Shown here: positions 1-11,959 of the stretch, one piece after another | Position numbering within the stretch: the stretch's first letter is position 1 | Layout of the letters: each line of letters begins with the position of its first letter | Origin: a virus | Lineage: Duplodnaviria; Heunggongvirae; Uroviricota; Caudoviricetes | Length of the DNA: 11,959 bases | Direction: 5' to 3' (one strand) | Virus record (IMG/VR): IMGVR_UViG_648276647_000018 | Program-made: the position numbers and the translations under genes | Notes under the pieces: generated by a model | The model's input: the letters and a program-made list of their open reading frames with translations, nothing else | Databases searched by the model: none | Told to the model about the DNA's origin: nothing

Positions 1-1212
1 GTGGCAAGAACGACACGCCCCCTGACCAACACAGAAGTTCTGCGCGCTAAAGCGTTAGAAAAGGATCTAACGTTACATGATGGCGATGGCCTTTTTCTGC
101 TCGTTAAAACGAACAGTAAGAAGTTGTGGCGTTTCCGTTATCAACGTCCAGCAACAAAACAGCGGACAATGATGGGGCTTGGTGCTTTCCCCGCCCTTTC
201 ACTTGCTGATGCTCGACGGTTAAGAGCGGATTACCTTGCTTTGTTGGCTAATGGTATAGACCCACAAGTTCAAGCTGAATTTATCGAAGAACAACAACAG
301 ATAGCTCTAGACAGTATTTTTTCGACTGTTGCGACCAACTGGTTCCAGATAAAAAGCAAAAGCGTTACCCCTGATTACGCTAAAGATATATGGCGCTCAC
401 TGGAAAAAGACGTATTCCCTGCCATCGGGGAGATTCCTGTCCAGCAAATAAAAGCCCGAACACTAGTTGAAGCCCTTGAGCCAATCAAAGCTCGTGGAGC
501 ACTCGAGACAGTGCGCCGACTTGTACAGCGCATTAACGAGATAATGATTTATGCCGTAAACACTGGTCTGATTGATGCCAATCCAGCATCAGGTGTTGGG
601 ATGGCCTTTGAAAAGCCCAGAAAACAAAACATGCCGACGCTGAGGCCAGAAGAATTACCAAAGCTGATGCGTTCTTTGTTCATGTCAAATCTGTCTGTTC
701 CGACTCGCTGTCTCATTGAATGGCAGCTTCTGACTCTAGTGCGTCCTGCTGAAGCTTCCGGTGCTCGATGGGCAGAGATCGATCTCGATGCAAAGCTCTG
801 GATGATTCCAGCCGAACGGATGAAGGCCAAACGAGAGCACATAGTTCCTTTATCCACGCAGGCATTAGAAATTCTAGAAGTGATGCAACCTATTAGCGCA
901 CATCGTGAGCATGTTTTCCCAAGCAGAAATGACCCTAAACAACCAATGAATAGCCAGACTGCGAATGCCGCGCTTAAGCGCATTGGTTATGGTGGGAAGC
1001 TTGTTGCTCATGGATTACGTTCTATAGCAAGTACAGCACTAAATGAAGCTGGTTTTAATCCGGACGTAATTGAAGCGGCACTTGCTCACAGTGATAAAAA
1101 TGAAGTTCGAAGAGCATACAATCGTTCAACTTACCTTGAACAACGTATAGACTTGATGAATTGGTGGGGTGAATTTGTGCACAACCGCCACCGCCTCATG
1201 CAAGCGATTTAA
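1..1212 (+). CDS. int: P4-type tyrosine integrase. The N-terminus is at or just beyond the window edge (GTG at position 1).
   Basis: The ORF is 403 aa. The N-terminal region (LTNTEV..., DGDGLFLLVKTNSKKLWRFRYQRP) is typical of P4/CP4-57-like integrases. The C-terminus carries HGLRS, LAHS and RRAYNRSTY, the catalytic R-H-R-Y signature of tyrosine recombinases. Confidence 0.9.
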   Translation: MARTTRPLTNTEVLRAKALEKDLTLHDGDGLFLLVKTNSKKLWRFRYQRPATKQRTMMGLGAFPALSLADARRLRADYLALLANGIDPQVQAEFIEEQQQIALDSIFSTVATNWFQIKSKSVTPDYAKDIWRSLEKDVFPAIGEIPVQQIKARTLVEALEPIKARGALETVRRLVQRINEIMIYAVNTGLIDANPASGVGMAFEKPRKQNMPTLRPEELPKLMRSLFMSNLSVPTRCLIEWQLLTLVRPAEASGARWAEIDLDAKLWMIPAERMKAKREHIVPLSTQALEILEVMQPISAHREHVFPSRNDPKQPMNSQTANAALKRIGYGGKLVAHGLRSIASTALNEAGFNPDVIEAALAHSDKNEVRRAYNRSTYLEQRIDLMNWWGEFVHNRHRLMQAI

Positions 1213-1239: not shown

Positions 1240-2598
1240 ATGCCAAATAACTACCATCAATACATCGAAGACGTTAGTGATGATATAAAGACATGTCTTG
1301 AAGGAATGGGATGCCAACCCATACTTTTTGTTGGATCGGGATTAACCAAGAGATATCTTTCTGGCCCAAACTGGGAAGAACTTCTTCAGCAACTTGCTAA
1401 TGAATGTCCTAACATCGATAAAAGATTTGCCTATTATAAACAGAAATACCCCGAGTTGATTGATATCGGCAGTGTATTTTCTGATTCTTATAACGAGTGG
1501 GCATGGGGTGATGGAGAGAAAGAATTTCCAGCAGAGTTATTTGATGCAGGCAATGAGCCAAGTATTTATTTTAAATACAAAGTATCTAGTATTTTCAACT
1601 CATTGTTACAAGAAAAAGAAATCGTAAACAACGGTGAAATTGAACTTCTGAGAAAGATTCACCCTCATTCAATCATCACAACAAATTACGACAAATTACT
1701 TGAATCGATATATCCTGAGTTTACCCCCATTATAGGCCAAAAAATCCTTTACGCTAATCACGGTAGCATTGGTGAAATACTTAAAATACATGGTTGCTGC
1801 TCCACTCCTGAAAGCATAATAATAAACCGCGATGACTACGATGACTTCATAAAGAAGAAGAAATATTTAAGCGCAAAACTGCTTACTTTCTTTGCTGAAC
1901 ACCCTCTTCTATTTATAGGTTACAGCGCAGAAGACTCGAACATAAAAAACATACTATCTGATATTGATGAACTACTTTCAGAAAATGGAGATGTCATTCC
2001 AAATATATACATTTTAGAATGGACGAGCAAACAAAATGAAAGTGAATACCCACGCCGTGAACGGCTGATTCAAGTATCTGCAAACAAAAGCATTAGAATA
2101 AAAAGTATAGTAGCAAATGACTTCTCTTGGGTATTTTCAGCGTTTGGCGCGAACAGAGCACTTGATAACATAAATCCCAAATTATTGAGGGCACTTTTAG
2201 CTCGCACTTACGATCTCGTCAGAACTGATATACCTCGCAATCCTGTCCAAGTTGATTACCGAGTTTTATCAAGCATTAGCGAGTCAGAAGGTGAATTAGC
2301 GAAATTATATGGTATCGCCACATCGTCAGATGGTATGGCATTTAATGCCAGTTATCCTTTTACTTTAACCACGCTAGGGCAATCACTTGGTTTCAAAGGC
2401 TGGCATGATGCGAACAAACTATTAGAAGTAGTTAAAAACATCACGAACGTAGACATCAAGACATTCGATAACAAATACCACTATGCAATAATGAACGGTG
2501 ATGAGATTCAGTCCCATAGATATTCAAACTATCTTCGAGAACTCCTCGAAAAGGTTAGGGATGGAGAGGAGTTTGAGTTAGGAATAAAGGCTCCATAA
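1240..2598 (+). CDS. SIR2-like (sirtuin-fold, SIR2_2-type) protein, 452 aa, with a C-terminal domain of unknown function; candidate single-gene anti-phage effector.
   Basis: Strong SD (AAGGAG) 6 nt upstream of the ATG. Motifs: PILFVGSGLTKRYL (Rossmann Gly-rich loop, aa 27-40), IITTNYDKLLE (putative catalytic Asn149, codon 1684-1686), ILKIHGC (putative catalytic His184, codon 1789-1791) and LLFIGYSAEDSNI. The gene is clearly more AT-rich than the GC-rich P4 backbone. It lies between int and cos. Confidence 0.85.
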   Translation: MPNNYHQYIEDVSDDIKTCLEGMGCQPILFVGSGLTKRYLSGPNWEELLQQLANECPNIDKRFAYYKQKYPELIDIGSVFSDSYNEWAWGDGEKEFPAELFDAGNEPSIYFKYKVSSIFNSLLQEKEIVNNGEIELLRKIHPHSIITTNYDKLLESIYPEFTPIIGQKILYANHGSIGEILKIHGCCSTPESIIINRDDYDDFIKKKKYLSAKLLTFFAEHPLLFIGYSAEDSNIKNILSDIDELLSENGDVIPNIYILEWTSKQNESEYPRRERLIQVSANKSIRIKSIVANDFSWVFSAFGANRALDNINPKLLRALLARTYDLVRTDIPRNPVQVDYRVLSSISESEGELAKLYGIATSSDGMAFNASYPFTLTTLGQSLGFKGWHDANKLLEVVKNITNVDIKTFDNKYHYAIMNGDEIQSHRYSNYLRELLEKVRDGEEFELGIKAP

Positions 2599-2804: not shown

Positions 2805-2906
2805 CGCACGCTTTGCGGGGCGGTTTTAATGCAGTTGCACTGACACGCTCAGACCGCGCCGGGAATGGCGCGGTCTGCAGAAAATGAGGCAGGGAAACGC
2901 ATGCAA

Positions 2907-2939
2907 AGCCATGCACCTTATCGATGCATGGCTTTTTTC
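2907..2939. terminator. Hairpin with T-run between cos and the psu stop; possible terminator, strand uncertain.
   Basis: Stem agccatgca (2907-2915) and tgcatggct (2925-2933), followed by TTTTTT (2934-2939) on the plus strand. A second inverted repeat gaccgcgcc/ggcgcggtc lies at 2852-2875. Confidence 0.4.
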
Positions 2940-2968
2940 AGTAAAAACAGGCGGATTTTCGGGAAATT

Positions 2969-3541
2969 TTACACAGACTGACGTGATGCCAGTTGCGCAC
3001 TTTTACGCGAAAAAATCATGTTCTGCGCAGGGGTGAATTTTTCACGGCTGTCGTCCACCGAAGCCGCGTCAGGCCTGAATCCGATGGTCGTTAAAATGTC
3101 GCTATCCTGTGCGGAATAATTAATTTTTTCCCCCTTCGCAAGCCAGGACAGAAGGGCTTCACGCAGGGCATCTGTGGCACGCTGTATGGCACAGTTTCGG
3201 GCAATGGCCGTCAGCTCACTGTAGCCCATCAGCTCCGGTGCCAGTGCCGCCGCCAGTGCTGTGCCGTGCTGCTGCATAAAATCATTCAGCCGGTCGCGGA
3301 TGCTGATGTGCTGAACGGCTTCATGCGAACGAATATAACGACCGGCGGCCTGATTCACCTGCCATTTTCTGACTTCGATAATATTGCGTAATTCGTCCAG
3401 GCGACTGACGTTTCTGCCTTCTCCTGACAGAAGCCGCAGGTATTCCTGTTCGGCCGCTGCCAGCTCATTTTTGCGTTGCAGCCATGCTGCTTTGTTATTC
3501 TGACAGGTGTCAAAGGCCTGCTGTAAGGCTGTGCTTTCCAT
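2969..3541 (-). CDS. psu: Psu, polarity suppression / capsid decoration protein.
   Basis: 190 aa. The translation MESTALQQAFDTCQNNKAAWLQRKNELAAAEQEYLRLL... matches P4 Psu in sequence and length as I recall it. It is the last gene of the sid-delta-psu operon, read toward cos. Confidence 0.9.
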   Translation of the reverse strand: MESTALQQAFDTCQNNKAAWLQRKNELAAAEQEYLRLLSGEGRNVSRLDELRNIIEVRKWQVNQAAGRYIRSHEAVQHISIRDRLNDFMQQHGTALAAALAPELMGYSELTAIARNCAIQRATDALREALLSWLAKGEKINYSAQDSDILTTIGFRPDAASVDDSREKFTPAQNMIFSRKSAQLASRQSV

Positions 3542-3614
3542 CGTTATCTCTTTCTCATCATGCTGAAGAATAAAAATACGGTGTGTGGCGACGGCCGGTG
3601 TTAACCGGCAGCCC

Positions 3615-4115
3615 TCATTCCAGACGCAGCGAATATGATTGTGTTTTTAACCGTACTGGCGGCAGTTCCTGTTTTTCATGCAGGCGTTCTGCCAGTTCGT
3701 CCGGCGTGACCGGGCGGACAATGAAGCGGGTGATGGTCTGAAGCGTTTTAAACACCAGACCACAGCCCGGATCCGTGCACACATAAAAACGCTCGGTGAC
3801 TTCCTGAGACAGACCCCGCGATGTTCTTGACAGCGCAAGGCCTTTACATCTCCGACAACAATATCCGGTAACAAGCATTCTTTTCGGGCGCTTCATGCTG
3901 CCGGAGGCTGACGTCAGTGAATCGCGGTATCTCTGTTTGCCTGAAATGTATTCCATTCCTGAATCTTTACAGTCAGAGAAAAAGCTTTCACTCGCTTCAA
4001 ATGTCGCAGAGCAATAAATATTCCGGCACTGTGCAATCATTATCTTGGTGCCATCGTCCATGAAATGTGCGCGACGGGTGTGAGCAACATGTCCACACGA
4101 CGGGCAGTAAATCAT
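3615..4115 (-). CDS. delta: Delta, Ogr/Delta-family zinc-finger late-gene transactivator.
   Basis: 166 aa starting at MIYCPSCGHVAHTRRAHFMDDGTKIMIAQCRNIYCSATFEASESFF, with a second Ogr-like module (YVCTDPGCGLVFKT). The start is the ATG at 4113-4115 with an AGGA SD. The longer 185-aa ORF in the track is an in-frame upstream extension. Confidence 0.85.
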   Translation of the reverse strand: MIYCPSCGHVAHTRRAHFMDDGTKIMIAQCRNIYCSATFEASESFFSDCKDSGMEYISGKQRYRDSLTSASGSMKRPKRMLVTGYCCRRCKGLALSRTSRGLSQEVTERFYVCTDPGCGLVFKTLQTITRFIVRPVTPDELAERLHEKQELPPVRLKTQSYSLRLE

Positions 4116-4846
4116 GACAGCAGTCCTCTGGCCTTCAGCTCTGCTCCCTGCTGGTCTATTTTGTCCTGCCACACCTTGCGCTGTGCCGGTGTGCCTGCCA
4201 CCTCATAATCCATGTGCGGGAGTGTTGCCGCTGACAGTCCGGTCAGCCGGAGAACCGGCTCGCCGGTGAGGCTGATTTGCATCTGTTTAATTTTCTGTTC
4301 CAGCGATGATTTCACCTGCTGCATGACAGCCTTTTCCGGTGCGACGTAGCCCTGATGGCCGGTGGTGTTGGCGAGCGGATTTTCCTGTACCAGAATGCTC
4401 AGATGCATTGCCCGGACAAGCGCCTCACAGGTTTCATTCAGGGCGTGTTCCAGCTCATGCTCTGCATACAGACTCAGAAGGTGATGATGTGCCTTCCGGT
4501 AGGCGGTGGCCGTGCTGTCACACGCCCCTTTCAGGCGTTCACGTTCGAAATTCAGCACCACGGCCAGATTGTCATATTCCTGTACCAGCTCCCGGCGTGC
4601 CACGCGCTCAATGTGGCGCTGTTTCAGCTCGTCGCTCAGGACACCACCGGCTGCACGAAAGGCCGTGCGCCAGTCGTCAGCGTCATTTCCGTCGGCCTGC
4701 GTCAGCGCATTTTTTTCCTGCTCTGCCCGTTCAATGGCCGTGACGGTCTCATCCATCAGGCGGGCGTTCTCAAGATGAGCGGCTCTGGCCTTTTCCAGTT
4801 GTGCCAGTGCGGGTTGCAGATATTCAGGGATGGTGTTGTCAGACAT
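4112..4846 (-). CDS. sid: Sid, capsid size-determination (external scaffold) protein.
   Basis: 244 aa starting at MSDNTIPEYLQPALAQLEKARAAHLENARL with a GAGGAG SD upstream. The stop at 4112-4114 overlaps the delta ATG (ATGA overlap). The 266-aa ORF in the track is an upstream extension. Confidence 0.85.
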   Translation of the reverse strand: MSDNTIPEYLQPALAQLEKARAAHLENARLMDETVTAIERAEQEKNALTQADGNDADDWRTAFRAAGGVLSDELKQRHIERVARRELVQEYDNLAVVLNFERERLKGACDSTATAYRKAHHHLLSLYAEHELEHALNETCEALVRAMHLSILVQENPLANTTGHQGYVAPEKAVMQQVKSSLEQKIKQMQISLTGEPVLRLTGLSAATLPHMDYEVAGTPAQRKVWQDKIDQQGAELKARGLLS

Positions 4847-4918
4847 TTTCCGGCTCCTCGTCACTTCAGGTTGAGAAAATTGTGACGTACACCGGACAGC
4901 AACACGACGCATTGCAGA

Positions 4919-4936
4919 TGTGCCAGCCCTGACACA
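4919..4936 (-). promoter_or_regulatory. Putative Delta/Ogr activator site (TGT-N12-ACA) of the late promoter Psid.
   Basis: tgtgccagccctgacaca is centred about 82 nt upstream of the sid ATG. A second TGT-N12-ACA lies at 4881-4898. Delta/Ogr/Cox-activated P2/P4 late promoters carry this dyad near -55. Confidence 0.4.
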
Positions 4937-5015
4937 GGAGACTCATCCTCAGACCGGCAAGCCAGGAAAAGGTCGCAGGAAAAACCGGCTTACTGTTTGT
5001 TTTTTTATATTTTAC

Positions 5016-5120
5016 TGTTCACCTCTGTTCACCATAAGAAAAAAGATAAGTAATACAGTAAGTTAAAGGGTGAACAATCGCAGTAATGACTGTTCACCGT
5101 CTGTTCACCACTGTTCACCC
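5016..5120. repeat. Replication origin (ori): six copies of the type I iteron TGTTCACC.
   Basis: Direct copies at 5016-5023, 5026-5033, 5091-5098, 5103-5110 and 5113-5120, plus one inverted copy (ggtgaaca) at 5069-5076. The region is AT-rich. It lies about 4.8 kb from crr, as in P4. Confidence 0.7.
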
Positions 5121-5169
5121 GTTGATGGGCTTTTTGTGCTGTTTATTACTTTTTATTTTTATTAATTCA

Positions 5170-5215
5170 CTGAAATAAATAAGAAAAAACAATTTGTATT
5201 TCACTATAATTTTTT
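5170..5215 (+). promoter_or_regulatory. Possible constitutive early promoter (PLE-like) for the vis-to-alpha operon.
   Basis: Perfect TATAAT at 5205-5210 in an AT-rich tract. I could not pick out a good -35 at 17-bp spacing. Confidence 0.25.
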
Positions 5216-5397
5216 CCAGCTCCTTCCAGAGCGTTTTAAAGCTATCTGGCGCTGATGTACAAAAAATGCACAGCCATTGTAAGGCTGCCGGAACAAATCC
5301 CCCCTGTTGCGTCTGCTGAAAATATTCACAAAATAAAGCGCTACCCGAAGCCGGACGGACTTATCCGGTGCTGTATGGACATTAACGAGGTAGCCCG

Positions 5398-5664
5398 ATG
5401 CAAGCTGTTTTTTCTTCCCCGTCTCCCGCCCCTGTTACGCCACTGATGCCGCTGCCGGACATCACGCAGGAGCGTTTTTTACGTCTGCCGGAAGTGATGC
5501 ACCTGTGCGGCCTGTCACGCTCGACCATCTATGAACTCATCCGTAAGGGGGAATTTCCGCCGCAGGTGAGTCTTGGCGGTAAAAATGTGGCCTGGCTGCA
5601 CTCTGAAGTCACCGCATGGATGGCCGGGCGCATTGCCGGACGCAAACGGGGGTACGACGCATGA
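5398..5664 (+). CDS. vis: AlpA/Vis-family helix-turn-helix regulator (excision and late-gene control).
   Basis: 88 aa with a GAGG SD 7 nt upstream. The core [48 protein letters not shown] is the classic AlpA/Vis HTH. Confidence 0.8.
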
Positions 5665-5756
5665 TGATGCCCGCTCTGCAAAAAGTCCCTTTTTCTGGCT
5701 TGCCTTTTTCCGGCATTTGCGGATATAGTTTTTCCGCTGCCGCAAAATCGGCAGCC

Positions 5757-6047
5757 GGGCGTAGGAACCCGTGTAACTCGAAGGCGACATATGACGCGCC
5801 ATGCGTCTTTTTTTGTGTCGCAATCAACGCCACAGAGCGCCAGATTATGGTGTGGCGTGTGGTTTGCCGTGCAGGTATGATCCTGTTCGCAATCGCATGT
5901 TATGCCACTGAGTCAATGGTAGCTCAGGCGGGGCAGCCTCCGGGCTGGCCGGTATTCTTCGAGGCCGGTATTCCTACCCCCGTCTGGGCTATCGCCATCG
6001 AGCGTAGGAACTCCGGCGATAGCAGTTATTTGCTACTCGAAGGAGAC
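5757..6047 (+). promoter_or_regulatory. CI-RNA-type immunity region: seqA-like and seqC-like direct repeats flanking a complementary seqB-like element.
   Basis: gcgtaggaac...ctcgaagg occurs at 5759-5784 and again at 6002-6043. Between them, cttcgag (5957-5963) and ttcctac (5971-5977) are the antiparallel complements of both halves. A 9-bp inverted repeat gctatcgcc/ggcgatagc lies at 5978-6023. Confidence 0.45.
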
Positions 6048-6053
6048 TGCCTT

Positions 6054-6251
6054 ATGGCTACAACCCTTACCCCTTCACACCCTGAATTTGTCTTTGTGTT
6101 TGCGGCTGTCCGTCGCGCAGACCGTCATCCCCGTATCTGCATGCTTCGCACCGTCGCCGGTGATGAACGCAGCGCCCGCCGTTCCCTTGTCCGTGACTAT
6201 GTGCTCTCCCTTGCTGCCCGTCTGCCGGTGGTGGAGGTGTCCCGTGCGTAA
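6054..6251 (+). CDS. Hypothetical small early protein (65 aa).
   Basis: ATG with an AGGAGA SD 7 nt upstream. It is the 3' part of the long 5616-6251 reading frame, whose upstream portion overlaps vis and the immunity repeats and is probably non-coding. Confidence 0.45.
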
Positions 6252-6531
6252 TAAAAAAGCCCCTCAGACCGTCTCAGCACGTCATGACGCCCGTGAACAC
6301 CTCAGCATTGAGGCTTACCATAAGCTCAACCGCGCCAGCGCCGTATCCCAGTTTGTTGGGGGTGATTTGATTCACCGTGAACTCTCCGGCCTGCATCAGC
6401 TCTACATTCCGCATATTTTCAGCTACCTGAATGAAGATATTGATTTTGTGCTGAATGAGCTGAAAGCCAAAGGCCTGTGCCGCGATTTTCTCGCCCAGCA
6501 GAAAGACCGGGGAGACAGGACGCATGTTTGA
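6244..6531 (+). CDS. Hypothetical early protein (95 aa, GTG start); possibly epsilon-like by size and position.
   Basis: GTG preceded by GGAGGT at 5-nt spacing. The start overlaps the stop of the preceding ORF by 8 nt. The epsilon attribution is from uncertain memory of the P4 map. Confidence 0.5.
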
Positions 6532-6979
6532 TTTTCCCCAGCCCGGTGAGATTTACCGTTCTGCCGGTTTTCCCGATGTGGCCGTGGTCGGCATTCTGGA
6601 AGACGGTATTCCGTGGGAAATGCCGTACCGCTGCCCGGACATTGTCTGGAATCCGTACCGCCGTAAATTCAGTATCCTTGTGCGTATCCTCGCTGACGGG
6701 CGCACCACAGACATCCCGCTGGGGCGTTTTCTGCGGGAATTTACCTGTGACCGTCCTGACCTGTTCAGACGCAGCCCCGTAAACCGGCATGCGGTACTGA
6801 AAGAAATGGCCGGAGACCCGGAATTACAGAAATGGCGGGAGAAATATCTGGATATTTACCCGCAGGACCCTGTTCCGGTCAGCCGGGCGGCACCGGTGGC
6901 GCGGGAATGGCGGGAAATTCCCCGCACGGAGCCTGACCCGGAAATCACCCCGGATAACAGTTACCGCAATTATCTGTAA
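6524..6979 (+). CDS. Hypothetical protein (151 aa); size and position fit P4 orf151.
   Basis: The ATG overlaps the upstream stop (ATGTTTGA). Coding-like composition, same strand as alpha. Confidence 0.7.
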   Translation: MFDFPQPGEIYRSAGFPDVAVVGILEDGIPWEMPYRCPDIVWNPYRRKFSILVRILADGRTTDIPLGRFLREFTCDRPDLFRRSPVNRHAVLKEMAGDPELQKWREKYLDIYPQDPVPVSRAAPVAREWREIPRTEPDPEITPDNSYRNYL

Positions 6980-7114
6980 TTAAAAAACGACACCCGAAAA
7001 ATTAAATGTGCGTATTCGCGCAGGGATACGCACGTCTTCAGGAGACGCAGATATGCCTTATCAGTTAATGCAACCGGCACGGAATGCAGTCATCTGTCAC
7101 AGGGAGGAAAGCAA

Positions 7115-7435
7115 ATGACCCCCCCCTTACCGCCCGTCTTACGCGCAGCCCTTTACCGTCGCGCTGTCGCCTGTGCCTGGCTGACCGTGTGCGAACGTCA
7201 GCACCGCTACCCGCATCTCACCCTTGAATCACTGGAGGCTGCCATCGCCGCTGAGCTGGAAGGCTTTTATCTGCGCCAGCACGGTGAGGAAAAAGGGCGT
7301 CAGATAGCCTGTGCCCTGCTGGAAGATTTAATGGAATCCGGCCCCCTGAAGGCCGCGCCGTCGCTGTCCTTTCTCGGGCTGGTTGTGATGGATGAACTCT
7401 GTGCCCGTCACATAAAAGCGCCGGTACTGCACTGA
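7115..7435 (+). CDS. Hypothetical protein (106 aa) immediately upstream of alpha.
   Basis: GGGAGGAA SD 5 nt upstream of the ATG. It ends 14 nt before the alpha start. Confidence 0.7.
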
Positions 7436-7449
7436 AGGAGAACAACACC

Positions 7450-9783
7450 ATGAAAATGAACGTAACCGCCACCGTCAGCCATGCGCTCGGCCACTGGCCG
7501 CGTATTCTCCCGGCGCTGGGGATTCAGGTGCTGAAAAACCGTCATCAGCCCTGTCCGGTCTGTGGCGGGAGTGACCGCTTCCGTTTTGATGACAGGGAGG
7601 GGCGCGGCACCTGGTACTGCAATCAGTGTGGTGCCGGTGACGGCCTGAAACTGGTTGAAAAGGTGTTTGGTGTTTCCCCGTCCGATGCGGCCGCAAAGGT
7701 GGCTGCCGTGACCGGCAGCCTGCCCCCGGCTGACCCGGCAGTGACGGCTGCCGCCGGTGCTGAAACAGACGCTGCCCGGAAGAACGCCGCCGCACTGGCA
7801 CAAACCCTGATGGCGAAAACCCGTCCCGGAACCGGTAACGCCTACCTGACCCGCAAGGGCTTTCCCGGCCGGGAATGCCGGATGCTGACCGGCACACACA
7901 GAGCCGGTGGCGTGAGCTGGCGCGCCGGTGACCTTGTGGTGCCACTGTATGACGACAGCGGCGAACTGGTTAACCTTCAGTTAATCAGTGCTGACGGCCG
8001 TAAGCGCACCCTGAAAGGCGGACAGGTCAGGGGCACCTGTCACACCCTTGAAGGACAGAATCAGGCAGGAAAACGTCTGTGGATAGCGGAGGGATACGCG
8101 ACCGCACTTACCGTGCATCACCTGACCGGTGAAACGGTGATGGTGGCGCTTTCTTCCGTGAACCTCCTTTCTCTGGCCAGCCTTGCCCGACAGAAGTATC
8201 CGGCCTGTCAGATTGTCCTTGCCGCAGACCGTGACCTCAGCGGTGACGGCCAGACAAAAGCCGCCGCAGCCGCAGATGCGTGTGAGGGCGTTGTTGCCCT
8301 GCCGCCGGTCTTCGGTGACTGGAATGATGCCTTCACGCAGTACGGCGGGGAGGCCACCCGTAAGGCCATTTACGATGCCATCCGGCCACCGGCTGAAAGC
8401 CCGTTCGACACCATGAGCGAAGCGGAGTTTTCCGCCATGAGTACCAGCGAAAAGGCCATGCGTATCTATGAGCATTACGGCGAGGCGCTCGCGGTCGATG
8501 CCAACGGCCAGCTTCTGTCCCGTTATGAAAATGGTGTCTGGAAGGTGCTGCCACCACAGGACTTTGCCCGGGATGTGGCCGGGCTGTTTCAGCGTCTGCG
8601 CGCGCCGTTCTCCTCCGGGAAGGTGGCCTCCGTGGTGGACACCCTGAAGCTGATTATTCCGCAGCAGGAAGCCCCCTCCCGCCGCCTGATTGGCTTTCGT
8701 AACGGCGTGCTCGACACGCAGAACGGCACGTTCCACCCGCACAGTCCGTCACACTGGATGCGTACCCTGTGCGATGTGGATTTCACCCCGCCGGTGGAAG
8801 GGGAAACGCTGGAAACCCACGCCCCCGCGTTCTGGCGCTGGCTTGACCGTGCCGCCGGTGGCCGTGCGGAAAAACGCGACGTGATTCTGGCCGCACTGTT
8901 TATGGTGCTGGCAAACCGCTACGACTGGCAGCTCTTTCTGGAGGTGACCGGTCCCGGCGGCAGCGGCAAAAGTATCATGGCCGAAATAGCCACCCTGCTG
9001 GCCGGGGAGGATAACGCCACGTCGGCCACCATCGAGACGCTGGAATCCCCGCGTGAACGTGCCGCGTTAACTGGCTTCTCACTGATACGCCTGCCGGACC
9101 AGGAAAAATGGAGCGGCGACGGTGCCGGACTCAAGGCCATCACCGGCGGCGACGCGGTGTCCGTTGACCCGAAATACCGGGATGCGTACTCCACGCATAT
9201 CCCGGCGGTGATTCTGGCCGTGAACAATAACCCGATGCGCTTCACCGACCGCAGCGGCGGCGTGTCACGCCGGCGGGTGATTATTCACTTCCCGGAACAG
9301 ATAGCCCCGCAGGAGCGCGACCCGCAGCTTAAGGACAAAATCACCCGCGAGCTGGCGGTCATCGTGCGTCACCTGATGCAGAAGTTCAGCGACCCGATGC
9401 TCGCCCGGTCACTGCTTCAGTCCCAGCAGAACTCAGACGAGGCACTGAACATCAAACGGGATGCCGACCCGACGTTTGATTTTATCGGCTATCTGGAAAC
9501 CCTGCCGCAGACCAGCGGCATGTATATGGGGAACGCCAGTATCATCCCGCGTAATTACCGTAAATACCTCTATCACGCCTATCTGGCCTACATGGAGGCA
9601 AACGGCTACCGGAATGTACTCAGTCTGAAAATGTTCGGGCTGGGGCTGCCGGTGATGCTGAAGGAATACGGACTGAATTACGAGAAGCGCCATACCAAAC
9701 AGGGGATACAGACCAACCTGACGCTGAAAGAGGAAAGCTACGGCGACTGGCTGCCAAAATGTGACGACCCTGCAACAACCTGA
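7450..9783 (+). CDS. alpha: Alpha: bifunctional DNA primase / helicase with C-terminal iteron-binding domain.
   Basis: 777 aa with an AAGGAGA SD. N-terminal zinc ribbon (CPVCGGSDRFRFDD...WYCNQCG). TOPRIM-like motifs (IAEGYATALTV, LAADRD). Walker A GPGGSGKS (nt 8951-8974). The length matches P4 alpha. Confidence 0.95.
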   Translation: MKMNVTATVSHALGHWPRILPALGIQVLKNRHQPCPVCGGSDRFRFDDREGRGTWYCNQCGAGDGLKLVEKVFGVSPSDAAAKVAAVTGSLPPADPAVTAAAGAETDAARKNAAALAQTLMAKTRPGTGNAYLTRKGFPGRECRMLTGTHRAGGVSWRAGDLVVPLYDDSGELVNLQLISADGRKRTLKGGQVRGTCHTLEGQNQAGKRLWIAEGYATALTVHHLTGETVMVALSSVNLLSLASLARQKYPACQIVLAADRDLSGDGQTKAAAAADACEGVVALPPVFGDWNDAFTQYGGEATRKAIYDAIRPPAESPFDTMSEAEFSAMSTSEKAMRIYEHYGEALAVDANGQLLSRYENGVWKVLPPQDFARDVAGLFQRLRAPFSSGKVASVVDTLKLIIPQQEAPSRRLIGFRNGVLDTQNGTFHPHSPSHWMRTLCDVDFTPPVEGETLETHAPAFWRWLDRAAGGRAEKRDVILAALFMVLANRYDWQLFLEVTGPGGSGKSIMAEIATLLAGEDNATSATIETLESPRERAALTGFSLIRLPDQEKWSGDGAGLKAITGGDAVSVDPKYRDAYSTHIPAVILAVNNNPMRFTDRSGGVSRRRVIIHFPEQIAPQERDPQLKDKITRELAVIVRHLMQKFSDPMLARSLLQSQQNSDEALNIKRDADPTFDFIGYLETLPQTSGMYMGNASIIPRNYRKYLYHAYLAYMEANGYRNVLSLKMFGLGLPVMLKEYGLNYEKRHTKQGIQTNLTLKEESYGDWLPKCDDPATT

Positions 9784-9799
9784 CCATCATGACTCATCT

Positions 9800-9825
9800 G
9801 ACCGGCATCTGCCGGTCTTTTTTTA
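9800..9825 (+). terminator. Rho-independent terminator after alpha.
   Basis: Stem gaccggc (9800-9806), loop atct, stem gccggtc (9811-9817), then TTTTTTT. Confidence 0.55.
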
Positions 9826-9840
9826 TCCCTGAATTCCCCG

Positions 9841-10140
9841 AAGGTGAACAATCCACTGTTCACCCTTCACCGTATATTCACCCGTTATCACACTGAAATT
9901 AAAAGAGAAAAATGAAAGGTGAACAGTGTGAACAATCAAATCAAAAAAACTTTTTTTCTTCCGGTGTGATTTCAGCACGGGAAATTAATCCCCTGCACAA
10001 GTCACACCGGCAGAATGCCGGAGGTGAAGAATCGAATGTTCACCCTTCACCCATTATTCACCATCTATCACTCTGAAATAAAAGGAGAAAACAGAAAGGT
10101 GAACAGTGTGAACAGTTCTTTCGAAAAAAATTTTTTTTCC
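9841..10140. repeat. crr (cis replication region): two direct repeats of about 120 bp at a 180-bp period, each with TGTTCACC-type iterons.
   Basis: Repeat 1 (9841-9960) and repeat 2 (10021-10140) align almost base for base, with a 60-bp spacer between them. Each holds ggtgaaca / tgttcacc copies and ends in an A/T run. Confidence 0.75.
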
Positions 10141-10203
10141 TGTACGATATAGCATCAATCCAAGTAAAAATGCGCTTTCATTTCACATTAACTTCCAGCC
10201 ATT

Positions 10204-10296
10204 GGTATACGATTAGGTATACGCACAAAAAATGAATTAAACAAAATCATTAAAAATCAAAGCAATACAATATTTATTCAAACTCCGCCAGCCCAC
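10204..10296 (+). other. Candidate right attachment site (attR): tandem ggtatacg arm-type repeats followed by a degenerate copy of the ssrA (tmRNA) 3' end.
   Basis: ggtatacg occurs at 10204-10211 and 10217-10224. ttcaaactccgccagcccacca (about 10275-10296) resembles the ssrA 3' end (ttcaactcccgccagctccacca, from memory) with three indels. The left repeat is not in the window, so this cannot be confirmed. Confidence 0.3.
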
Positions 10297-10428
10297 CAAA
10301 TAATGATTGGACGGTGTAAGGACTACACCAACAAAAACAGGAAGTTATAAGTCTCAGCAGGACACCGACCAGACGGTGAGGAGACAAAAAAGGATACGCA
10401 ACGGAGTCGCGACTCCCTATGACATTAA

Positions 10429-10452
10429 AGCCCGCTGATGCGGGCTTTTTTA
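10429..10452 (+). terminator. Rho-independent terminator in the flank upstream of csiD.
   Basis: Stem aagcccgc, loop tgat, stem gcgggctt, then TTTTTT. A perfect palindrome ggagtcgcgactcc sits just upstream at 10403-10416. Confidence 0.5.
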
Positions 10453-10882
10453 TTGGTCCTGACCCGCCCTGAATAGAATTCATCCAATTACAGCCCAGAC
10501 ATATACAGTATCCCTCAGCTCAGTATCAGCTTCTCGACAAATGGTCACTGTTATTTACCCGTTGCCAGAAAGAGAATAATTTGCCCCCATAGCCAGCCTT
10601 CCCGGAATCTGTATATTCATTAATATTGTTATCGATTCCATCAAGTAACATAGGTTGGATGCGATTGATCTTACTCACATTAGTCGACACGGAACTCAGT
10701 AAGTCGAACTCTGGAAAAGCAGTTTAAATAGCATTTAAACAAATGCCACCAGTTCGAAAAAGAGTATAAGCACACTTAATATATTGTTTTAATTATTCAT
10801 TTCCTTTCAACCCAATTCTTATCCCTCACATTACTTGTTATTGATTTGTTGTTTTTGATCACAATAAGAAAACAATATGTAA

Positions 10883-11959
<1,077 letters not shown>

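Follow-up and report, generated by a model that had tools for sequence, protein, structure and literature searches.

Among the systems described so far, the one closest to the locus presented here is the immunity region of the satellite phage P4. In the P4 lysogen, the CI RNA is processed from the primary transcript and acts as an antisense RNA at two targets, seqA and seqC, resulting in premature termination of transcription (PMC4825925). The seqA and CI RNAs of the P4 literature are the RNAs also described as IsrK-like and C4-like, respectively (PMC3632133, PMC4825925), and the work on them (Ghisotti 1992, Sabbattini 1995, Forti 1999 and Briani 2000) is summarised in PMC4825925, PMC3632133 and PMC10111431. 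The constitutive promoter of the system is internal to the eta gene (PMC10111431, summarising Forti et al. 1999). Kil is a truncated form, translated after read-through, and is the first gene translated from transcripts of this constitutive promoter, PLE. Translation of full-length Eta, by contrast, requires transcripts of the late promoter further upstream and is coupled to that of the alpA homologue; ribosomes moving along eta prevent termination (PMC10111431).

Similar modules have been described in other elements. In the immI region of P1 and P7 (c4, icd, ant), the same a'/b' logic is found, with an a1b1 site upstream and an a2b2 site over the ribosome-binding site of an Icd-like gene, and c4 is cut from the transcript that it controls. 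Matched changes in these boxes also set P7 apart from P1. For the P4-like retronphage phiR73, Sabbattini et al. (1996, in Virology) reportedly showed that heteroimmunity to P4 is due to the CI, seqA and seqC sequences. RNase P and PNPase have roles in excising the CI RNA of P4 from its transcript, and an acceptor-like helix with a 3' CCA is a feature reported for the recognition of C4 precursors by RNase P. As for termination, the P4 Rho-dependent site timm depends on the lack of translation, while Briani et al. 2000 reportedly observed more termination at t1 when the CI RNA was added in vitro, with no host factors needed, and a further site, t4, that is Rho-independent. Structurally similar systems are present in N15 (PMC3632133), and one survey of P4-like satellites comes without any treatment of the RNA immunity system (PMC8628076).

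In this work, we analysed a window of 11,959 nt, the whole stretch of DNA of the IMG/VR record IMGVR_UViG_648276647_000018. A comparison to phage P4 matched window positions 2805 to 10137 with 97.1% identity, on the minus strand of P4, and on this similarity the window is a P4-like satellite prophage. The gene order psu, delta, sid, ori, orf88, immunity module, kil, epsilon, orf151, orf106 and alpha is common to the window and P4, and all of the P4 core genes are present as full-length ORFs. As in P4, the replication genes (epsilon, orf151 and the alpha primase) are located downstream of the module, as judged from synteny and from Pfam matches for alpha, DUF5375, Psu and Ogr/Delta. The segment from 5400 to 6300, which holds the immunity region, has 93.3% identity to P4 and is therefore less conserved than the rest of the element. 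This region is very probably the immunity (lysogeny-maintenance) module of a P4-type satellite prophage, judging by its sequence features (Table 1). P4-type antisense RNA immunity is already known, and the window, a textbook case, adds little that is new when taken alone. The promoter, leader hairpins, terminator, CI scaffold, box positions, overlap with the kil ribosome-binding site, nested eta/kil frames and flanking genes are all as in P4; the differences are found in the specificity boxes, described below, and in the t1-cI spacer, where the window has a 9-nt deletion and further substitutions.

Some other sites were evaluated in the surroundings of the module. A TGT-N12-ACA dyad located about 400 nt upstream of the PLE start is a candidate box for the activator of the late promoter PLL, as suggested by the consensus and spacing of P2/P4 late promoters. 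A second match to this pattern, at 5772-5789, overlaps b1 and was considered a coincidence because it is missing in P4. At the right end, where a tmRNA fragment was sought, there was no Rfam match at E <= 0.01 within positions 10100 to 11000.

Table 1. Positions of the features of the immunity module and of its genomic neighbours in the 11,959-nt window.
Feature	Position	Strand	Basis or remarks
Integrase	1-1212		Pfam
SIR2-like protein	1240-2598		Pfam
Psu	2969-3541		Pfam
Ogr/Delta protein	3615-4172		Pfam
Candidate delta/Ogr activator box of late promoter PLL, TGT-N12-ACA dyad	5278-5295	+	Pattern match
orf88, AlpA-family gene	5398-5664	+	Pfam Phage_AlpA, 74 bits; P4 ORF88 annotation
eta	5661-6251	+	196 codons from ATG 5661; ends as kil, spans the entire RNA module
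PLE-type constitutive promoter, TTGCCT, 18-nt spacer, TATAGT	5700-5729	+	Consensus scan
c4-a1b1, RF03163	5723-5775	+	Rfam, 49.1 bits (threshold 46.7)
Leader RNA, IsrK-like "SeqA RNA"	5736-5813	+	Rfam isrK RF01394, 72.3 bits (threshold 50)
a1 box of seqA, GUAGGAA	5761-5767	+	Loop of hairpin 5756-5771; 7/7 complementary to a'
b1 box of seqA, CUCGAAGG	5777-5784	+	8/8 pairs with b', one G-U included
Intrinsic terminator t1, GACGCG-CCA-UGCGUC (GACGCGCCAUGCGUC) then U7	5793-5814	+	Terminator scan
CI RNA, C4 antisense family RF01695	5912-5999	+	Rfam, 74.4 bits (threshold 45), E = 2e-13
b' box of seqB, UCUUCGAG	5956-5963	+	12-nt loop of hairpin 2
a' box of seqB, UUCCUAC	5971-5977	+	Single-stranded junction before closing stem
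9-bp hairpin, arms 5988-5996 and 6015-6023, a2 in loop, then AGUUAUUUGCU	5988-6023	+	Inverted repeat
a2 box of seqC, GUAGGAA	6004-6010	+	7/7 complementary to a'
b2 box of seqC, CUCGAAGG	6036-6043	+	8/8 pairs with b'
kil, Icd-like, 65 codons, nested in eta	6054-6251	+	NCBIfam NF033153 phage_ICD_like, 76 bits (threshold 25)
DUF5375 protein, equivalent of orf106	7115-7435		Pfam
alpha primase	7450-9783		Pfam

The first-pass annotation had described direct repeats with a complementary core in this region, and both copies as well as their inverted complements were located, between 5759 and 6043. The sequence GCGTAGGAAC is present at 5759-5768 and again at 6002-6011, and the repeat grows to 13 nt if one mismatch is allowed (5756-5768 and 5999-6011). 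Likewise, CTCGAAGG is present at 5777-5784 and 6036-6043, and here too a single mismatch brings the repeat to 13 nt (5776-5788 and 6035-6047). Between the copies, their reverse complements are found in inverted inner order, CTTCGAG at 5957-5963 and TTCCTAC at 5971-5977. The arrangement was evaluated by searching for pairs of collinear 7-mers in which each 7-mer occurs within 320 nt as a first copy, a reverse complement and a second copy, the inner order being inverted. When all 11,959 nt of the window were simulated 1000 times with a first-order Markov model, such a double triplet turned up, at any position, in only 5 of the runs, and chance is therefore an unlikely explanation. In the window, the four contacts between the boxes of seqB and those of seqA and seqC are perfectly complementary, a1:a' and a2:a' over 7/7 positions each and b1:b' and b2:b' over 8/8 each. 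The second copy of CTCGAAGG enters the sequence AAGGAG (6040-6045), which lies 8 nt upstream of the ATG at 6054, and the last two bases of b2 are the first two of GGAG (6042-6045), the ribosome-binding site of kil.

The same copy, complement and copy arrangement was also observed in the crr region (9818-10133), where it derives from the crr repeat GGTGAAC and from A/T runs; GGTGAAC also makes up the ori repeats at 5016-5113.

Relatives of the module were gathered using the 65-aa protein encoded at 6054-6251 as query. This search gave 85 further loci, 5 from Kosakonia, Enterobacter, Phytobacter, Kluyvera and Mixta and 80 from IMG/VR, and the 86 sequences, including the window and P4, comprised 48 distinct ones. 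Scanning genome contigs with a fixed DNA pattern of the CI scaffold resulted in 0 matches, because the relatives in other species carry CCTTCGGG instead of CCTCCGGG in hairpin 1. The Kil protein is 97 to 100% identical in most of the 80 IMG/VR loci (two are at 89%), and despite this near-identity the 341-nt immunity region of these loci ranges from 71 to 100% identity. We identified 17 box combinations among the 86 loci, made from 5 a-types and 8 b'-types, and in 13 of these 17 all four contacts are perfect (7/7, 7/7, 8/8 and 8/8).

Across the 48 distinct sequences, a1:a' is paired in 99.7% of the cells and a2:a' in 100%, with 6/7 pairs changed on both sides in either contact; the corresponding values are 98.2% for b1:b' and 99.0% for b2:b', with 6/8 pairs changed on both sides in each. 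Hence, both seqA:seqB and seqC:seqB have 12/15 pairs changed on both sides. The observed covariation score was reached by 0/500 shuffles, and sliding the partner by 1 to 3 columns made the pairing fall to 32-48%. Moreover, the CI RNA varies at 15 positions among the 37 alleles of E. coli type, and 10 of these belong to the 15 box positions. Compensatory mutations in the paired segments had been proposed in the first-pass annotation as a way of checking the antisense reading, and natural variation, in the alignment to P4 and in the 48 sequences, passes this check. Its suggestion that the seqC-like copy overlaps the Shine-Dalgarno sequence of the ORF at 6054 also holds, since the overlap of b2 and GGAG is kept in 48/48 distinct relatives. 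The comparative data amount to a clean natural compensatory-mutation series for a three-partner RNA-RNA interaction.

The promoter at 5700-5729 was the sole sigma-70-like site identified by the consensus scan between 5600 and 6300. Its -10 hexamer is identical in P4 and matches the "-10 consensus" annotated in the P4 record X02534 (1985). The leader contains a hairpin at 5736-5755, the hairpin at 5756-5771 that presents a1, the b1 box and the terminator t1, and its helices are 99-100% paired across the 48 sequences. As seen in Table 1, the leader is assigned to the RNA family of the Gifsy-1 IsrK/STnc1160 locus of Salmonella, and it matches the isrK model end to end. IsrK has been termed a structural homologue of the P4 SeqA RNA (PMC4825925). 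It differs in being a reported trans activator of orf45-anrP translation, and no such role is known for the leader of the window. The terminator t1, which adjoins seqA on its downstream side, was likewise the sole terminator-like site found by the scan of 5600-6300; it corresponds to the 3' hairpin of the isrK model and is conserved in 48/48 sequences. In a ViennaRNA calculation on the nascent leader of one allele, the predicted probability of the t1 hairpin was 0.44 with a1 and b1 free and 0.96 with both blocked. Favouring t1 when the two boxes are blocked would explain a CI-dependent termination at t1 and, hence, autoregulation. In this thermodynamic model of one allele, free seqA would act as an antiterminator.

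Downstream of the leader, the C4 model was matched over its full length (positions 1-87), and the C4, isrK and c4-a1b1 matches all lie above the curated Rfam thresholds, in the expected order and on the + strand. Together with the 93% identity to the P4 immunity region, these matches bear out the likeness to the P4 CI RNA arrangement that had been noticed at first pass. The CI RNA has a closing stem of 17 bp (5917-5933 with 5978-5994), a GC-rich hairpin 1 (5934-5947) and a hairpin 2 (5948-5969). Folded alone, the RNA has a minimum free energy of -48 kcal/mol, with a z score of -4.7 against shuffles. The closing stem is 100% paired in the 48 sequences, with 3 covarying pairs, and a CCA at 5995-5997 that overlaps or directly adjoins the 3' end of the closing helix is present in 48/48. 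As in P4, a CI RNA of about 80 nt (~5917-5997) would be excised from the primary transcript as a stable species, for which the acceptor-like closing helix with its 3' CCA is indirect evidence.

Several details of the first-pass annotation had to be adjusted to this fold. The RNA had been placed at 5930-6050, and its actual span runs from about 5912/5917 to 5997/5999. The duplication of ggccggtatt is present, as GGCCGGTATT(C) at 5947-5957 and 5963-5973, one base off the positions originally given, and these GGCCGG/CCGGT copies form hairpin 2. The suggested tRNA-like fold is only partly correct, the RNA being a 17-bp closing helix that bears two hairpins and has the CCA described above. A tRNA-like gene was rejected, as ARAGORN called no tRNA or tmRNA anywhere in the window and the structure lacks the four arms of a cloverleaf, having a long single stem with a pair of hairpins. 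Finally, the 9-bp inverted repeat exists, spanning 5988-6023 rather than 5978-6023, and is not part of the RNA fold as had been suggested; it forms a separate downstream hairpin that presents a2.

In the relatives, this downstream hairpin is 98.8% paired and has 3 pairs changed on both sides, indicating that it is a selected structure. The nucleotides of its 5' arm are also those of the basal 3' strand in the CI closing stem, so that the two structures are mutually exclusive, and the hairpin therefore lies outside the mature CI RNA. It is followed by AGUUAUUUGCU and is a candidate for the Rho-independent site t4 that Briani et al. 2000 reportedly described. We also considered a fold in which the kil start is sequestered in cis, since the minimum free energy structure of 5986-6062 pairs CUCC with GGAG and CCAU with AUGG. 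This fold was rejected for want of support from covariation: pairing reaches 87.5% of the cells, a result equalled by 499-500 of 500 shuffles.

The module is also crossed by an open reading frame. The eta frame is open from 5607, with its first ATGs at 5616 and at 5661-5669, and the TGA stop of orf88 (5662-5664) overlaps the ATG at 5661 in the sequence ATGA (5661-5664). RefSeq annotates a 196-aa "Icd-like protein" in this frame and no RNA feature, and the region might be read as protein coding only, that is, as the N-terminal two thirds of an Icd-like protein of 196-211 aa in which the repeats are incidental. In agreement with a coding function, the frame is open across the module in 46/48 alleles from six genera, including all five of the other genera, with 3 stops over the 48 sequences versus 272 and 119 in the other two frames; in addition, the stretch from a2 to the kil ATG has three configurations of single-base indels, and the frame is kept in every one of them. 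However, coding alone accounts neither for changes that are matched at three separate sites, with Watson-Crick pairing retained, nor for three Rfam matches above threshold, and it would leave a promoter and a strong intrinsic terminator inside an ORF. The Icd-like family signal is confined to the last 65 codons of eta, and the encoded amino acids vary freely at the box positions. Hence, we give almost no weight to a purely coding origin of the pattern. The conserved frame is that of eta, a known gene that includes kil, and the literature presents the translation of eta across the module as a means of overriding termination rather than as something that replaces the RNA (PMC10111431). At first pass, conservation of a coding signature over the repeats had been expected to speak against the antisense module; the eta frame does cross the repeats, yet it coexists with the RNA function (PMC10111431), and because the coding and RNA layers coexist the signature does not refute that function. 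For annotation purposes, the region should be entered as the immunity RNA CI/C4 together with the targets seqA and seqC, all lying within eta/kil.

As described above, the antisense reading accommodates the RNA elements and the frame, and the module would work in the following manner. Transcription would start from the constitutive promoter at ~5736 and run through a leader with the seqA target, with a1 in a hairpin loop and b1 just after it, before reaching the intrinsic terminator t1. Transcripts that read through t1 would contain the structured RNA of ~80 nt (~5917-5997), which would be cut out to give the stable CI RNA, exposing b' in the loop of hairpin 2 and a' in the junction beside the closing stem. 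By pairing in trans with a1 and b1, the CI RNA would favour the t1 hairpin and limit its own synthesis. By pairing with a2 and b2, it should both occlude the kil ribosome-binding site and favour premature termination ahead of the replication genes epsilon, orf151 and alpha. As a result, the prophage would be silent and an incoming element with the same boxes would be shut off; premature termination and superinfection immunity are the functions that P4 homology and covariation lead us to infer for the CI RNA. When the late promoter upstream of orf88 fires, ribosomes translating eta through the module would override termination.

A different balance between the two targets is also conceivable, in which the RNA acts in the manner of P1 c4. 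In that case, only the kil ribosome-binding site would be blocked, termination would be secondary, through Rho acting on untranslated RNA, and neither the hairpins nor the contact at seqA would take part in it directly. The RNA families RF01695 and RF03163 are common to immI and the window, both have an Icd-like gene downstream, the overlap of b2 with GGAG is seen in all alleles, and the dependence of the Rho site timm on lack of translation would suit this route. Nevertheless, seqA is far from any ribosome-binding site and yet covaries with seqB as tightly as seqC does, and it is immediately followed by a canonical intrinsic terminator that is predicted to form more readily once a1 and b1 are sequestered. 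The host-factor-free enhancement of t1 and the Rho-independence of t4, as reportedly observed by Briani et al. 2000, also stand against it. As a system, immI of P1 differs from the window in that an antirepressor is the product under control, and the route documented there is polarity that follows repression of translation. The window has replication genes under control, a terminator directly after seqA and the overlapping eta as an override. Two recombinant loci, L062 and L076, have lost the seqA match and still have a seqC matched to their CI RNA, suggesting that seqC is essential but not that seqA is functionless. Altogether, we consider a mechanism restricted to the kil ribosome-binding site unlikely.

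To what extent this immunity would be specific can be addressed from the boxes themselves. In the alignment to P4, substitutions cluster in the boxes and are compensatory at seqA, seqB and seqC. The a1 and a2 boxes are GTAGGAA in the window and GTGAGAA in P4 (GUAGGAA and GUGAGAA as RNA), and a' is TTCCTAC and TTCTCAC, respectively. The b1 and b2 boxes are CTCGAAGG in the window and TTCACAGG in P4 (CUCGAAGG and UUCACAGG as RNA), with b' being TCTTCGAG in the window and CCTGTGAA in P4. For the CI RNA of the window, the predicted duplex energies are -24.6 kcal/mol with its own seqA and -30.6 kcal/mol with its own seqC, in comparison with -9.3 (seqA) and -15.7 kcal/mol (seqC) for P4-class targets. 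Given the weak predicted pairing with non-cognate targets, the element and P4 should be heteroimmune, a prediction from base pairing and duplex energies; with the a and b boxes setting the specificity, the element would be immune to itself and not to P4. The window resembles phiR73 in having a P4 scaffold with altered, mutually matched specificity sequences, phiR73 being compared here by description and not by sequence, and it differs from it in carrying a SIR2-like gene, not a retron, in the cargo position. DNA identity of 77-80% to window positions ~5713-6024, from seqA to a2, was also found in the telomere phages phiKO2 and PY54 and in related Klebsiella phages, which differ in being temperate phages with a linear-plasmid prophage context and in the genes that are controlled. 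N15 was absent among the BLAST matches to the immunity region.

If any part of this system is under-described, it may be the population picture, namely, the reassortment of a two-box code and the rare recombinants in which seqA is unmatched. We regard it as about an even bet that the two boxes form an independently reassorting two-part immunity code in natural P4-like satellites. If so, the box pattern would point to diversifying selection in which satellites competing for shared helpers gain from heteroimmunity, and the pattern of L062 and L076 would mean that the contact at seqC is essential, whereas that at seqA is autoregulatory and dispensable. The combinatorial code hinted at by these data could serve for typing P4-like elements and for predicting their ability to coexist.

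It could be argued that the module is a relic within a defective prophage, its sequence intact and no longer in use. Many P4-like elements in E. coli are cryptic, and a few of the relatives collected here have decayed, with b2 deleted in L021 and L066 and the eta frame broken in L083 and L066. By contrast, every element of the module in the window is intact and perfectly matched, the full set of core genes described above accompanies it, and its 341-nt immunity sequence recurs at an identity of at least 99% in 142 E. coli records; E. coli 120899 (NZ_CP025916) is one strain with this element. An inactive relic is thus a very improbable reading. Of 5426 complete E. coli genomes, 2116 have the module in one version or another. 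Two genomes with two co-resident elements were also observed in the sample, one pair with different boxes and the other with the same boxes.

An open frame in phase with kil, the Icd-like gene, was identified at 5607-6251; it spans the promoter, the terminator, the CI RNA and both target sites, and its ATGs are listed in the table below. This long frame is the known eta gene, and its openness was kept across six genera. In RefSeq, the eta frame is annotated as a 196-aa Icd-like protein, and the RNA feature is absent from the annotation. Between box a2 of the downstream target seqC and the kil ATG (window about 6024-6053), 1-nt indels gave rise to three different configurations, located at columns 321, 329 and 350 of A2, the alignment of related immunity regions. 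The total length was unaltered in each configuration, and therefore the eta frame was unchanged.

Among the relatives' immunity loci gathered with the Kil protein as query, L062:858-1207 and L076:858-1207 are natural recombinant alleles. In both, seqC still matched the CI boxes perfectly, but the leader target seqA had lost its match to them: b1:b' scored 6/8 in L062, and in L076 the a contact scored 6/7 and the b contact 5/8. The crossover appears to lie within the spacer between the terminator t1 and cI. Three other alleles, L021:870-1207, L066:869-1207 and L083:869-1207, show signs of decay. Internal deletions of 1-2 nt were found in b2 of L021 and L066, and the eta frame was broken in L066 and L083, leaving 43 and 57 open codons, respectively, compared with about 150 in most alleles.

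Related immunity regions were also found in other replicons. Those of phiKO2, PY54 and several Klebsiella phages, that is, telomere phages and related Klebsiella phages, exhibited 77-80% DNA identity to about 5713-6024 of the window, and the similarity covered seqA, CI and the start of seqC, through the a2 box. In addition, plasmids of E. coli accounted for about 890 matches, annotated there as "ash family protein". Moreover, each of two genomes harbored two P4-like elements, L010 and L080 in IMG genome 2531839450 and L031 and L032 in IMG genome 2529293142; one pair differed at both boxes and the other had identical boxes, a sample of two genomes being too small for a heteroimmunity trend.

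Outside the immunity region, the heptamer clusters correspond to the type-1 repeats of the P4 ori and to the crr region, and the dyad may serve as an activator box for PLL, the late promoter. The SIR2-like gene was flanked by the integrase and psu genes, and this slot is the one in which the cargo of P4-like satellites varies. The E. coli 120899 element, otherwise similar to that of the window, carries a different SIR2 protein, of 915 aa, in this position.

Features located in the window outside the CI pairing boxes
Feature	Position	Strand	Remarks
SIR2-like protein, 452 aa	1240-2598	+	Pfam SIR2_2; assigned by PADLOC to PDC-S25, a candidate defence family (E = 2e-84)
Heptamer TGTTCAC/GGTGAAC clusters	5016-5113 and 9843-10108		both orientations
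TGT-N12-ACA dyad	5278-5295		about 400 nt upstream of the start of PLE, the constitutive promoter; about 100 nt before orf88
ATGs of the eta frame	5616 and 5661-5669		in phase with kil

The DNA similarity to P4 ended at 2805 and 10137, leaving the flanks (1-2804 and 10138-11959) outside, and the integrase (1-1212) had no megablast match to P4. At the right end, 10277-10457 resembled a phage LLS region annotated as "tmRNA pseudogene / attP", although Rfam detected no tmRNA in this part of the window, and a csiD-like gene started at 10982. Given these similarity limits, the unmatched integrase and the right-end content, the element seems to use an integration site different from that of P4.
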